Shown: in pieces, positions 51,925-55,641 of the stretch | Numbering within the stretch: position 1 is the stretch's first letter | How the letters are laid out: each line of letters starts with the position of its first letter | Assembly: GCA_017398595.1 (NCBI GenBank) | Contig: JAFQFR010000015.1 | Coordinates: forward strand, 32,504 to 96,503 | Origin: Clostridia bacterium | GTDB lineage: Bacteria > Bacillota > Clostridia > Oscillospirales > CAG-272 | Length of the DNA stretch: 64,000 nt | Reading direction: 5' to 3' | The notes under the pieces: model-generated | Told to the model about the DNA's origin: nothing | Database searches by the model: none | What the model saw: the letters and a program-made list of their open reading frames with translations, nothing else | Program-made: the position numbers and the translations under genes

Positions 51925-52074
51925 ATGAGAGTTAAGATTACCCTGGCATGCAGCGAGTGCAAGCAGAGAAACTACGAGACCAAGAAGAACAAGAAAAACG
52001 ATCCTGACAGACTTGAAATGAACAAGTACTGCCGTTTCTGCAACAAGCACACTCTGCACAGAGAAACCAAGTAA
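51925..52074 (+). CDS. rpmG: 50S ribosomal protein L33 (zinc-binding form)
   Basis: Read manually: [17 protein letters not shown]...[16 protein letters not shown]; below the ORF track cutoff. Confidence 0.97.
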
Positions 52075-52091
52075 TTACGGAGGAAAGAAAG

Positions 52092-52310
52092 ATGGCAGAA
52101 GCTACGAAAGAAAAGAAACCGAGCCGCATCGCAAAATTCTTCCGCGACTACAAGAGCGAGCTGAAAAAGATCACCTGGTGCCCTTTCAAGAGCGTTAAGT
52201 CCAATACCGTTTTGGTAGTCGGTCTGGTTGTCGCACTGGCAATCGTGATCGGTCTGCTGGATCTGGCATTCGGCACGGGCTTCGTTGCCTTCGGAAAGCT
52301 CTTCGGCTGA
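52092..52310 (+). CDS. secE: Preprotein translocase subunit SecE
   Basis: KSELKKITW followed by a TM helix; synteny. Confidence 0.93.
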   Translation: MAEATKEKKPSRIAKFFRDYKSELKKITWCPFKSVKSNTVLVVGLVVALAIVIGLLDLAFGTGFVAFGKLFG

Positions 52311-52330
52311 TCCCATCACGGAGGTCGGTT

Positions 52331-52870
52331 ATGAGCGATATTAACGAACTGGCAAGACTCGGCCCGAGATGGTATGTAGCACATACCTATTCCGGCTACG
52401 AGAACAAGGTGAAGACCAATCTCGAGAAGATCATCGAGAACAGAAATCTCGGACATCTGATCTTTGAGATCAGAATCCCTGTGGAAACTGTTATGGAAAC
52501 AAACAGCGCAGGTGAGGAGAAGGAAACCGAGGCAAAGCTGCTTCCCGGCTATGTGTTCGTGAAAATGATCATGAACGACGAGAGCTGGCATGTAGTTCGA
52601 AACATCCGCGGCGTTACAGGCTTTGTGGGCCCCGGATCCAAACCCGTCCCGCTGACGGAGGACGAGCTCGCCATTATGCAGGGCGAGACGACCAAGGCTA
52701 CCTTTAAGGTGGGCGAGACGATCAACATCGTCCGCGGCACTTTCGAGGGCTACAGCGGAAAGATCTACGACATTTCCGAGGACGGCGCGTCCGTGACCGT
52801 ACTGGTCAACACCGGCAAGCGCGATATGCCCGTGAAGGTCGAGATCGGCGACATCAAACTCGCAGAATAA
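52331..52870 (+). CDS. nusG: Transcription termination/antitermination factor NusG
   Basis: WYVAHTYSGYENKV, PGYVFV, GVTGFVG, KOW. Confidence 0.96.
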   Translation: MSDINELARLGPRWYVAHTYSGYENKVKTNLEKIIENRNLGHLIFEIRIPVETVMETNSAGEEKETEAKLLPGYVFVKMIMNDESWHVVRNIRGVTGFVGPGSKPVPLTEDELAIMQGETTKATFKVGETINIVRGTFEGYSGKIYDISEDGASVTVLVNTGKRDMPVKVEIGDIKLAE

Positions 52871-52915
52871 CATTTCGTCCTTTTTTAAAGGACAGCTTCG
52901 CTGATGCGAAGTACT

Positions 52916-52957
52916 GTGGGAGAGGAAAAATTCTTTTAATTCCTCGAAATAACCACA
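52916..52957 (+). promoter_or_regulatory. rplK leader (probable L1-binding autoregulatory hairpin)
   Basis: GTGGGAG...ACCAC stem with an internal loop just upstream of the rplK RBS. Confidence 0.7.
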
Positions 52958-52975
52958 TTTGGAGGTGCATTTAAC

Positions 52976-53401
52976 ATGGCAAAGAAGATTACCGGTTACA
53001 TTAAACTGCAGATCCCTGCCGGCAAGGCAACGCCTCAGCCGCCTATCGGTCCTGCACTCGGTCAGTACGGCGTTCCGATTCCGAACTTCACCAAGGAATT
53101 CAACGAGAGAACCAAGAACGACATGGGTCTTATCATCCCTGTAGTTATCACGGTTTACGCTGACCGTTCTTTCACGTTCATTACCAAGACTCCCCCCGCA
53201 GCCGTTCTGATCAAGAAGGCTTGCGGCATTGAGACCGCTTCGGGTACCCCGAACAAGACCAAGGTCGCTTCGATCACCAAGGAGCAGATCCGCAAGATCG
53301 CTGAGACCAAGATGCCTGACCTGAACGCAAGCTCTGTTGAGAGTGCTATGAGCATGATCGCAGGTACCGCGCGCAGCATGGGCGTTACCGTTGTAGACTA
53401 A
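52976..53401 (+). CDS. rplK: 50S ribosomal protein L11
   Basis: [29 protein letters not shown]. Confidence 0.98.
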
Positions 53402-53415
53402 GGAGGGGACCGAAG

Positions 53416-54105
53416 ATGACAGGAAAGAAGTATACCGAGAGCGCAAAGCTCATCGACAAGAGCAAGCTCTATGATGCATCCGAGGCAATTTCCCTCGTTT
53501 GCCAGACCGCAAAGGCAAAGTTCGACGAGACCGTTGAGCTTCACGTTCGTCTGGGTGTTGACTCCCGCCATGCAGACCAGCAGGTCCGCGGCGCGATCGT
53601 TCTCCCCAACGGTACCGGTAAGACCGTAAGAACTCTCGTTTTCGCAAAGGGTGACAAGGCTACCGCCGCTACCGAGGCAGGCGCTGACTACGTTGGTGCC
53701 GAAGATATGGTTCAGAAGATCACCAGCGAGAACTGGTTTGACTTCGACGTAGTTATCGCTACTCCCGACATGATGGGTGTTATCGGTCGTCTGGGTAAAG
53801 TGCTCGGTCCTAAGGGCTTGATGCCGAACCCCAAGGCTGGTACCGTTACCATGGATGTTGCCAAGGCTGTTAAAGAAGCAAAGGCTGGTAAGATCGAGTA
53901 CCGTCTCGACAAGACCAACATCATCCACTGCCCCATCGGCAAGGCTTCCTTCGGCGCAGAGAAGATCGGCGAGAACTTCGACGCGATCATGAGCGCTATC
54001 ATCAAGGCGAAGCCGGCTGCTGCAAAGGGTCAGTACATCAAGAGCTGCGTTATCGCAACCACGATGGGCCCCGGCGTAAAGGTAAACTACGCAAAGCTTG
54101 GCTAA
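53416..54105 (+). CDS. rplA: 50S ribosomal protein L1
   Basis: [25 protein letters not shown]. Confidence 0.98.
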
Positions 54106-54114
54106 TCAGCTATC

Positions 54115-54149
54115 AAAAAGGTGCACGCAATGTGCACCTTTTTTGTTTT
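54115..54149 (+). terminator. Intrinsic terminator after rplA
   Basis: aaaaaggtgcac..gtgcaccttttt. Confidence 0.85.
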
Positions 54150-54160
54150 GCGCGGAGCGG

Positions 54161-54189
54161 TTGACAAAGGATGGCAAATATGGTATACT
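54161..54189 (+). promoter_or_regulatory. Sigma-A promoter with extended -10
   Basis: TTGACA-N17-TATACT with an upstream TG. Confidence 0.85.
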
Positions 54190-54262
54190 AAATCCGTGAA
54201 CGGGGACGGCACCCATCAGAAAAAACGGACTCACGATAACTGCATATTTTACGGCAAAGGGG

Positions 54263-54850
54263 ATGACACCCATCGAAAAAAACGTGATTGTTGTAGATGA
54301 CACAGGCAAAGTATATGAGGCTACCTACCCCAAGAGGGCAAAGGGACTTGTTAAAAACGGCAGGGCACGCTTCATAGATGAACATACGATATGCCTTGCG
54401 TGTCCGCCAAAAAATGAATTGGAGGACAGTACAATGTCAGAAAATAAAAACATCACAACCGCTAAAACCGAGAACACCGCTCCCGCAAAGGTCGCATCTG
54501 AAAAATTTACCATGGATTACTGCCTCGGGCAGATCGAAAACATCCGTGTGCAGACCGAATATTTGAACACCGTGTTTGCAGAACTCAGCAAAGTAAAAGC
54601 GGAGGGACCCGGTGACACATGCGGTCAGGAGCGCGCAAAGGCGCTCGGCGATGTCGTAAGATGCCGCGAAACCACCAATCAAAGATTGATCGCATTTTAC
54701 GAAAAGATGTATGACGATTTAAAACCTGCTTCCTCTTTGAAAGAGCGCGCACTCCAGATCATGGAAAATGCATCGCACGGCGATCTTTCGGCAGAAGCAC
54801 TCGAACAGATCAATTATATCTTGGATGACATTCGCCACATCGACAAATAA
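54263..54850 (+). CDS. Hypothetical protein: PLMP/RRXRR-like N-terminal module plus a helical C-terminal domain
   Basis: NVIVVDDTGKVYEATYPKRAKGLVKNGRARF; own promoter and terminator. The start is uncertain (ATG 54263, ATC 54272 or 54215, internal ATG 54434). Confidence 0.75.
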   Translation: MTPIEKNVIVVDDTGKVYEATYPKRAKGLVKNGRARFIDEHTICLACPPKNELEDSTMSENKNITTAKTENTAPAKVASEKFTMDYCLGQIENIRVQTEYLNTVFAELSKVKAEGPGDTCGQERAKALGDVVRCRETTNQRLIAFYEKMYDDLKPASSLKERALQIMENASHGDLSAEALEQINYILDDIRHIDK

Positions 54851-54859
54851 ACAAACAAT

Positions 54860-54892
54860 AAAAGCAGGACAGCGAAAGCTGTCCTGCTTTTT
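54860..54892. terminator. Bidirectional terminator
   Basis: aaaagcaggacagc-gaaa-gctgtcctgctttt. Confidence 0.85.
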
Positions 54893-55505
54893 ACGTATTC
54901 TGCATCAACTGCAAATGCGCGATCCACGCATCGAGTGTTTCTGCGGTAAAGTTGCGGAGCGCGGCGGAATACAGCACAAAGGCGTCAGGGTCTTCCCGCT
55001 CCATTTTGCGCAGCGCCTTTTTGGGACCGAAATAATACTTGCCGCAAAGCTCGTAATAGATCTGCAAGCTGTCGATCAGTACCCAGTGCCAACGGTAATC
55101 CCCCTCGGCGTCGCCGCGTCCCGCGCGCAGCCGCATCTTTTCGCACCAACTGAGATCATGCGCGATCTCCTCGGCGGATTTTTTCGCCGCACCCTCAACA
55201 AACGCGGTCACGTTTGCCTTCGCCTGTTCCAATGAATCGGTGGTATCGAGCAGTATCTTACCGTCGTAGAGCTGCAAAAAGTCCTCGCAGGCAAACGGCT
55301 GCAAAAACGTATCGACAGGATAGAGAAACACATCCAGCAGCACGCCGCCGACCGTGGAATTGTCATATTTTTCTGCAGAGCGGTCGGTCAGCACCAACGC
55401 ATCGAAGTCGCTGTGTGCATTGTTGGAGCCGTCCGCATAGGAACCGTACACCACGATACCCGCGGGCGTATAGGTTTTCTGCAAATACTCGATGATCTCC
55501 TGCAT
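54891..55505 (-). CDS. Nucleotidyltransferase-domain protein
   Basis: VYGSYADG...SDFD (GS-x-DxD motif). Confidence 0.85.
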   Translation of the reverse strand: MQEIIEYLQKTYTPAGIVVYGSYADGSNNAHSDFDALVLTDRSAEKYDNSTVGGVLLDVFLYPVDTFLQPFACEDFLQLYDGKILLDTTDSLEQAKANVTAFVEGAAKKSAEEIAHDLSWCEKMRLRAGRGDAEGDYRWHWVLIDSLQIYYELCGKYYFGPKKALRKMEREDPDAFVLYSAALRNFTAETLDAWIAHLQLMQNT

Positions 55506-55641
55506 GGCGATCTCTCCTTTGTTTTCTTTTATATATACCACATGCGTGGAAAAAAGTCAATCTCCGCGTCTACAAATTGCCCTGCCCACTGGAAATTTGC
55601 GCGCCTTTGTGCTATAATCGGCATAAAGAGAGGTGTCTACA

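Follow-up and report, generated by a model that had tools for sequence, protein, structure and literature searches.

A tandem hairpin motif at the start of genes for a putative PLMP-like domain in gut Clostridia and its possible role in translational autoregulation

Introduction

Among the closest described systems to the locus studied here is that of IsrB, whose PLMP domain is described as contacting tandem hairpins that end the omega-RNA just ahead of the protein's own coding sequence, the last of these hairpins holding the Shine–Dalgarno (SD) sequence of isrB (PMC9581776). The same paper gives the PLMP fold as a four-stranded antiparallel sheet with one helix, like that of the N-terminal domain of IF3 (IF3-N; PDB 1TIF) (PMC9581776). 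Here we analyze a gene of a Clostridia bacterium (Oscillospirales; CAG-272), located within a 64,000-nucleotide (nt) stretch of assembly GCA_017398595.1 (contig JAFQFR010000015.1, positions 32,504 to 96,503 of the forward strand; hereafter the window, in whose coordinates all positions are given). The full-length open reading frame (ORF; 54263..54850, plus strand) encodes 195 amino acids (aa) and would produce the long isoform if translation starts at 54263 or 54272; residues 6-45 read as the earlier note on this DNA had quoted them. It combines a basic N-terminal domain (N-domain) with a C-terminal part, here called cargo, and its leader carries two similar hairpins, the second of which overlaps the gene start.

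Several other kinds of system share parts of this layout. Autogenous operators are found in ribosomal-protein leaders and in thrS, where the operator comprises two tRNA-like stem-loops bound by a dimer. Nested genes producing in-frame isoforms include those of the Tn5 transposase and its inhibitor, ClpB and IF2, whereas infC combines an AUU start with autoregulation. Among small riboswitches, preQ1-I consists of a hairpin with an A-rich tail and guanidine-II of tandem mini-hairpins.

In common with the IscB/IsrB PLMP domain, the locus has an N-terminal domain of about 50 aa in the register V.V.D..G......KRA..L...GRA and tandem hairpins directly at the gene's own start. It differs from these elements in having no RuvC, bridge helix, HNH or TAM-interacting domain in a protein of only 195 aa, no long omega-RNA or guide (the leader spans about 70 nt), no P-L-M-P residues, a single copy per genome, and a start codon that lies inside a hairpin and not after it. 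With autogenous operators it shares a gene-specific covarying 5' element made of duplicated units over its own ribosome-binding site, although here the protein does not belong to the known RNA-binding housekeeping factors, its binding being putative, and no cellular RNA to mimic was found, the motif occurring nowhere else in its own genome. The nested isoform genes are matched by a conserved internal SD with an in-frame start and a predicted shorter protein devoid of the N-terminal nucleic-acid-binding domain; here, however, the two products are predicted from sequence, and the cargo differs between subfamilies. The likeness to preQ1-I and guanidine-II lies in the small size, the A-rich 3' tail and the tandem units with the second over the ribosome-binding site, but there is no Rfam match, the motif accompanies one protein domain only, and a pairing of the tail with the loop showed no covariation by eye, so that a pseudoknot between the two was dropped. 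Autogenous operators and nested isoforms are both familiar types of arrangement. What we did not find in Rfam, Pfam, NCBIfam or the literature, and regard as new in that respect, are the RNA motif and the protein family themselves, the occurrence of a PLMP-like domain outside OMEGA systems and the fixed combination of all these before different cargo; the literature search, whose coverage did not extend to subscription journals, returned nothing on stand-alone PLMP-like proteins or on the leader motif.

Tandem Hairpins over the Gene Start

The leader contains two 29-nt direct repeats (54199-54227 and 54256-54284) that are 83% alike and lie 57 nt apart, the second overlapping the annotated start. 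Hairpin 1, formed by copy 1 (54195..54235, plus strand), is predicted to have an outer stem GUGA/UCAC around the core GGGGACGGCACCCAUCAGAAAAAAC at 54202-54226, which holds an invariant GGG/CCC mini-hairpin and an A-rich tail and shows ACG where copy 2 has AUG. Hairpin 2, formed by copy 2 (54248..54297, plus strand), encloses the core GGGGAUGACACCCAUCGAAAAAAAC at 54259-54283, and this core contains an SD-like GGGG, the annotated AUG (54263) and the AUC (54272) that occupies the start position common to the family. Codons 8-12 contain the 3' arm of the outer stem of hairpin 2, whose native duplex was calculated at -9.3 kcal/mol.

Alignment of the upstream regions of 76 distinct loci yielded a core consensus of about 25 nt, composed in order of GGGG, NNG, RNA, CCCAU, NNN and AAAAAAC, which is near-invariant even in the non-coding copy 1. 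When the pattern was counted in the 79 loci with window-like cargo (class A, described below) and at least 200 nt of upstream sequence, 76 had two copies, two had one and one had none. The flanking arms pair yet differ by species (GUGAGU/ACUCAC, GUGAUA/UAUCAC, AUGACA/UGUCAU and GCGGC/GCCGC, for instance). A covariance model built from 56 copy-1 sequences only found copy 1 in the window and 78 loci, independently detected copy 2 over the start codon in the majority of loci, and gave just three weak matches elsewhere in 628 kb. In the window itself, the copy-1-only model found hairpin 2 at an E-value of 0.0015, and the covariance model R1 scored hairpin 1 at 57.1 bits (E 2.8e-13).

The outer stem comprises seven pairs in the model-fitted alignment, every one of them with changes on both sides. 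Compensatory cells amounted to 172 compared with 71.9±6.3 in shuffled alignments, none of 500 shuffles reaching 172, and the covariation score was 0.278 against 0.040-0.117 when the pairing partners were slid by 1-3 columns. The two innermost pairs of the outer stem are mostly unpaired, and this alignment leans towards the structure of the covariance model. The alignment-free control compared native with swapped arms, the native ones being the more stable both for copy 1 (-5.9 vs. -3.6 kcal/mol) and for copy 2 (-8.75 vs. -6.2 kcal/mol). RNAalifold applied to a MAFFT alignment of the leaders recovered the invariant GGG/CCC pairs only, because MAFFT had misaligned the outer arms, a problem that the covariance model solved. 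Rfam gave nothing relevant in 7 kb and no match at E≤10 on the 181-nt leader. By these comparisons the leader is a new predicted structured RNA motif of tandem covarying hairpins, the second enclosing both an SD and a start codon; the "repeated leader" of the earlier note thus turned out to be a conserved covarying motif, and one found only at N-domain genes. An upstream ORF or a ribosome bypass between the copies was considered and dropped, as the spacing ranges from 41 to 101 nt in three phases (37/24/15) and copy 1 usually reads ACG.

An Exclusive Partnership between Motif and N-Domain

In the window's own genome (1.88 Mb, 75% complete) the 25-nt pattern had no further match beyond these two copies, up to three mismatches being allowed. 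A looser pattern produced 17 matches in 10 of 401 genomes across the class, compared with none for the reversed control, and all 17 sit at N-domain genes, one of them decayed. In addition, the model matched at the N-domain start in 29 of the 29 loci fetched with a protein of the second cargo type (class B, below), in two or three tandem copies. The association of motif and N-domain is therefore exclusive and two-way in all samples. The decayed copy (L136; G123:C1:156212-159236) retains motif copy 2 intact, its frame being shifted after codon 7, and its N-domain breaks off into unrelated sequence.

This distribution bears on what the motif might respond to. The tandem hairpins could instead form a riboswitch-like sensor, or a sensor of a factor acting in trans (a small molecule, an ion, a tRNA or another protein), which would control access to the first start, the N-domain serving some other purpose and not binding the leader. 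Small hairpins in tandem, each with an A-rich tail and a core that is unpaired and does not vary, copy 2 holding the ribosome-binding site, have the general look of small tandem riboswitches, and the lack of a matching Rfam family would make this a new class. We nevertheless hold such a sensor to be improbable, since riboswitches normally precede the enzymes and transporters of one pathway, whereas the motif is found only at N-domain genes in every sample, whatever the cargo, and part of it coincides with codons 1-7 of the domain with which it is invariably associated. The same aptamer before linked metabolic or transport genes, as in riboswitches, was not observed, every occurrence examined lying at an N-domain gene; a gene-specific covarying structure over the gene's own ribosome-binding site, as in operators, was.

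Two Candidate Translation Starts in One Frame

Codons 2-7 are near-invariant, and the third positions of Pro3, Lys6 and Asn7 are fixed, which reflects a constraint on the RNA. In 55 of 80 loci codon 1 reads ATG, the others having GAG, GCG, AAG, AGG, ACG, GTG, GGG or CTG; where it is ATG, it sits one base after GGGG, a poor SD spacing. Codon 4, in contrast to this variability, is always ATN (48 ATC, 20 ATA, six ATG and two ATT; n = 76), and in class B and distant members an ATG stands exactly at the codon 4 position with normal SD spacing (e.g., GGGGAGGACACCCAUG), the distant members having a canonical GGGGAGGA followed after about 6 nt by AUG within the motif. At least nine of the 80 loci (L030, L046, L050, L051, L058, L066, L067, L069 and L081) lack ATG, GTG and TTG alike at codons 1 and 4 and in the upstream frame as far as the previous stop, so that an intact N-domain can start there only at AUC or AUA. 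A non-canonical codon as the sole plausible first start recalls infC. The candidates in the window are the AUG at 54263 and the AUC at 54272; the former, although annotated, is possibly not the true first start. Taken together, the pattern suggests a first start that is deliberately weak and regulated, and the frequent absence of a canonical codon (AUC or AUA in its place) may be part of the control.

The same features allow another explanation of the repeat to be weighed, namely that it is a duplicated start region acting as a ribosome standby site or enhancer, with a 5' stem-loop that protects the mRNA, no regulator being involved and the core consisting of ribosome contacts. Such an origin would fit a transcript start predicted for most loci at the base of hairpin 1, the SD-like GGGG, AUN and A-rich stretch present in each copy, and the canonical SD and AUG of the distant members. 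On the other hand, the motif is absent elsewhere in the searched genomes and always travels with one domain, and the SD-like G residues are predicted to pair with CCC. Moreover, the first start of the window's clade is poor (AUG 1 nt after GGGG, or AUC/AUA) and therefore suits repression better than enhancement. We consider a standby or enhancer function unlikely.

The putative second start is located beyond the N-domain, where a predicted internal ribosome-binding site (54421..54436, plus strand) consists of GGAGGA (54421-54426), 7 nt and an in-frame ATG (54434-54436) that encodes Met58. GGAGG is present in 76 of 77 distinct sequences, and an in-frame ATG follows within 5-11 nt in 75 of the 77 (at 8 nt in 68). 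The codon before Glu54 specifies Leu, Thr, Ser or Met, yet its third base is G in all 77, and Glu54 itself is GAG in 76 of 77, other Glu codons of the domain being mostly GAA; this bias at GGAGGA points to selection on the RNA sequence and not on the peptide. An internal SD–ATG also lies at the domain junction of the class B loci L104-L112. The internal GGAGGA-N7-ATG at 54434 on which the earlier note relied is thus not only present but conserved at the nucleotide level.

It is very improbable that this site is no start at all but a conserved Leu-Glu-Asp...Met peptide or a pause site within one single protein. None of 81 loci has an in-frame stop between codon 1 and the internal ATG, which is compatible with a single fused product and also implies that the fused long form is itself under selection. 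A peptide or pause signal, however, does not agree with the constant third base before Glu54 despite the varying residue, with the GAG of Glu54, with the same SD–ATG ahead of the unrelated class B cargo, or with the existence of split or out-of-frame versions and of a signal peptide that begins at the internal Met (see below). In rare cases, N-domain and cargo are in different frames (L113 [G209:C27], P0370 and P0381, on contigs of 50 kb and 196 kb, and P0418); such forms could reflect either genuine pairs of genes or sequencing errors in homopolymers. Several databases place the gene start at the internal ATG, as for P0003, P0189, P0228 and an Atlas record. Gene callers differ in their choice of start, giving either the long or the short form.

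Two further features of the coding sequence may tune the internal start. The first is a predicted hairpin (54359..54408, plus strand) in which GGCAGGGCACGC (codons 33-36) pairs with GCGUGUCCGCC (codons 46-49); RNAalifold kept nine pairs in 76-77 of 77 sequences, with changes among GC, GU and AU. Its codons show very low synonymous variation, it is located just 5' of the internal SD, and its bases are also present in the divergent locus L135. The second is ACCUACC in codons 21-23 (54323..54329, plus strand), which is complementary to the internal GGAGG (54421-54425) with one bulged A; RNAalifold kept five pairs in 76-77 of 77, with almost no covariation, and Thr21 is ACC in 75 of 76 sequences, although by eye ACCUACC is not kept in several class B loci. 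ACCUACC could perhaps, as a weak suggestion, mask the internal ribosome-binding site over a long range until the N-domain is translated. Both features are leads only, because they are nearly invariant.

Likeness of the N-Domain to PLMP

The N-domain (residues 1-49; 54263..54409, plus strand) is basic, near-invariant and ends in CLACPP. Its mean column identity is 84% over 65 distinct sequences, and in codons 8-49 the third positions vary far more than the first and second, which indicates that the domain is selected as a protein. The only Pfam match of the whole protein was PF14239 (RRXRR), at E 0.09 and 13.1 bits; with residues 1-55 the values were E 0.012 and 15.9 bits, likewise below the cut-off of 25 bits, residues 8-42/43 aligning with profile positions 1-35/36 of 174. 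When the 65 N-domains were scanned singly, 61 matched RRXRR at E≤1 (best 0.0015, all sub-threshold), compared with 30 of 65 for B3, the next commonest Pfam family. A whole-genome scan of the window's own genome found no PF14239 match at E≤0.01.

For a more direct comparison, seven N-termini of IscB-type genes (open frames of 455-540 aa) from other genomes of the same class served as the reference IscB set. Using hhalign, the 65 N-domains aligned with these at a probability of 64.9% (E 6.1e-5, 33 columns, 33% identity; the alignments are shallow), whereas the control of the N-domain against 12 IF3 N-domains reached 5% and that of the IscB PLMP N-termini against IF3-N 1.5%. The low controls suggest that the PLMP likeness is specific, albeit from shallow alignments. 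The N-domain possibly has the same small beta/alpha fold as IF3-N, but hhalign, at 5%, finds no relation to it, and an IF3 C-domain is lacking. A language-model feature search with residues 1-56 returned short PF14239 proteins as its three best matches (0.94, 0.93 and 0.92), and 19 of 30 matches belong to the set carrying PF14239.

Homology of the N-domain to the PLMP domain is, on this sequence evidence, probable. The chief difficulties are that the likeness stays under every curated threshold, that the P-L-M-P residues are absent, the aligned stretch reading (N/K)-x-Y-E-A-T where IscB loci of the same class read KPLMP, and that the family profile found no IscB chain at E≤10 among the PDB sequences, the search returning just spurious designed armadillo repeats. 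These same points, together with an hhalign probability of only 65% over 33 columns, favor a domain that has nothing to do with PLMP, namely a short basic beta-alpha unit whose similarity is due to chance or convergence and which may bind DNA or protein. We regard this as doubtful, considering that three methods agree on family and register (61 of 65 by Pfam, E 6e-5 by hhalign, 0.94 by the language model) and that RRXRR is the commonest family among the N-domain matches, with far lower IF3-N controls. Neither RuvC nor HNH was found after the N-domain, either by Pfam or by the PDB sequence search with the family profile. The description of a PLMP/RRXRR-like module without a nuclease, which the earlier note had drawn from a residue pattern, is supported as regards the missing nuclease domains and, at sub-threshold level, the likeness seen by RRXRR, hhalign and the language model; in the profile comparison with PF14239 and IscB that it had called for, no N-domain reached 25 bits, and the name-giving residues are not there.

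In the IscB loci L090, L091, L085 and L094 of the same class, two small G/C hairpins lie about 60 nt before the ATG at the presumed omega-RNA 3' end. One of them is CUCC-GAAA-GGAG and contains the SD, and an A-rich stretch precedes the start; this layout resembles that of the leader, the sequence does not.

Different Cargo behind the Same Module

The cargo, which is also the candidate short isoform (54434..54850, plus strand; residues 58-195, 138 aa), has the motif RETTNQ.L..YEKMYDDL and matches no known family in Pfam, NCBIfam, PADLOC or PHROGs. An Atlas search with the C-domain was uninformative (best score 0.75), and a homodimer prediction for residues 78-195 scored 0.12 against a mark of 0.42, which bears neither way. 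Searching longer proteins with residues 1-56 revealed 91 proteins of 343-690 aa. Of the family members, P0352 is entered under a named Ruminococcus isolate. We then clustered the parts behind the N-domain of 295 retrieved proteins carrying the N-domain motif. Window-like cargo (class A) was found in 212 of these, and 82 have class B cargo, an unrelated domain of about 200 aa that begins MSKVINFNAREF, belongs to no Pfam family and is often followed by GDGC-type repeats or a coiled coil. Class B loci carry the leader motif, the N-domain and the internal start. The proposal that the module precedes different cargo domains is borne out by this second, unrelated class, again accompanied by leader motif and internal start.

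The remaining protein, the singleton P0268 (445 aa), has a class A type N-domain that runs in frame into a lipoprotein signal peptide, which begins exactly at the internal Met and is followed by a Peripla_BP_6 periplasmic binding domain. It could be a third cargo or an assembly chimera, resting as it does on one contig of 1775 nt.

Family, Locus and Expression

The gene is real and conserved, and it belongs to no Pfam or NCBIfam family; its conservation across hundreds of species places the observation beyond chance. Among 2604 candidates, 2435 proteins match at E≤1e-3, and the best 120 of the 2435 relatives have no Pfam domain, "hypothetical protein" being their sole source name; NCBIfam, PADLOC and PHROGs gave nothing useful for the protein. 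An exhaustive search of cluster representatives at 50% identity gave 1036 matches at E≤1e-3, and 495 stretches coding for a relative were present in a collection that represents each species by a single genome. Eighty of the 495 were fetched for the locus comparisons, and these derive from Acutalibacteraceae, Oscillospiraceae, Ruminococcaceae and unclassified Clostridia, mostly as metagenome-assembled genomes from the gut. Judged from sequence records, the family is widespread in Clostridia of the animal and human gut. The window's own genome has a single copy of the gene, and all of 81 loci can be read for at least 150 codons from codon 1 without a stop. No neighbors are conserved, the commonest neighbor cluster being common to just seven of the 80 loci, and the idea of a conserved operon was accordingly dropped.

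In the window, rpmG, secE, nusG, rplK and rplA occupy 51925-54105 and are followed by the gene at 54263-54850 and a convergent ORF (54891-55541, minus strand, 216 aa), with rplJ-rplL not directly next. The upstream rplK-rplA unit, whose rplA ends at 54105, is closed by a predicted terminator hairpin (54115..54143, plus strand), an inverted repeat of 12-13 bp followed by a T run. A predicted sigma-70-type promoter of the gene's own (54161..54189, plus strand) comprises TTGACA (54161), 17 nt and TATACT (end 54189), with TG ahead of the -10 element, and matches the consensus at 11 of 12 positions; the transcript start is predicted at ~54196, where hairpin 1 has its base. A TAnnnT hexamer whose end lies 10-16 nt ahead of the copy 1 core is present in 74 of 77 related loci, and 66 of those 74 additionally have a -35-like TTG element, so that, from the position of the -10-like hexamer, the transcript should begin at the foot of hairpin 1. 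A further predicted terminator hairpin after the stop codon (54860..54891) is common to the convergent downstream ORF. The gene is thus predicted to be a separate, monocistronic unit with its own promoter and terminator.

Two runs of one bovine-gut study contained metatranscriptome contigs that match the window exactly (54271-54721, 54271-54779 and 54692-54853). In the same two runs no RNA-library contigs lay over the flanking spacer at 54123-54169 or beyond 54875 and in the downstream gene, and the contigs end at ~54853-54874, near the terminator hairpin. They are a weak hint of expression, as such contigs cannot prove transcription, ends or strand. Contigs of both runs start at 54271, within motif copy 2; this shared start is probably the repeat breaking the assembly graph, and not a transcript end.

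Discussion

The reading that we prefer is translational autoregulation, in which the N-domain would bind the tandem hairpins of its own message and a long and a short isoform would be made; we put its chances at about even. The mRNA would begin at ~54196 with hairpin 1 and continue into hairpin 2, both showing the same 25-nt core, and the core of hairpin 2 would double as the translation start region of the N-domain. The basic N-domain, a probable distant relative of PLMP, would bind the cores, probably with one domain per hairpin. Bound at hairpin 2, it would block ribosome entry at the first start, while hairpin 1 at the 5' end would act as a decoy site, and the block would amount to negative feedback on the long isoform. 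The strong internal GGAGGA-N7-AUG would yield the cargo alone, as a short isoform that lacks the RNA-binding domain and would have an estimated mass of about 15.5 kDa, compared with about 22 kDa for the long one. That the N-domain binds RNA and represses translation, that two isoforms exist and that there is any interplay between them is what we infer from the sequences. Autogenous control is the simplest model that uses all the parts.

Besides the shortcomings of the PLMP likeness given above, several observations weigh against autoregulation by the N-domain. Pairing in the GGG/CCC mini-hairpin is unproven because its bases never vary, and the predicted fold of the leader is no more stable than that of shuffled sequence (z -0.33). 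By eye, the leader does not resemble in sequence the 3' ends of the omega-RNAs at IscB loci within the same class, and homology between the two was dropped as a candidate. An invariant single-stranded core is equally expected of a ligand pocket or of a ribosome contact. Finally, the in-frame fusion of a feedback domain to its cargo is not explained by the model.

A broader interpretation, possible but more tentative than autoregulation itself, is that of a portable feedback cassette in which a free-living PLMP-like RNA-binding domain is combined with its own tandem operator and an internal restart that releases the cargo. Such a cassette would be a cellular relative of the contact between PLMP and omega-RNA in IsrB/IscB, either as its source or as a domesticated derivative, and would reveal a past or present function of the PLMP domain away from RNA-guided nucleases. 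If autoregulation is true, the leader would represent a new structured cis-regulatory RNA class, and the N-domain would give a PLMP-like domain its first role beyond OMEGA/IscB elements, with implications for how IscB and the ancestors of Cas9 gained their PLMP domain. The locus would then constitute a compact natural negative-feedback module, reusable with other cargo.

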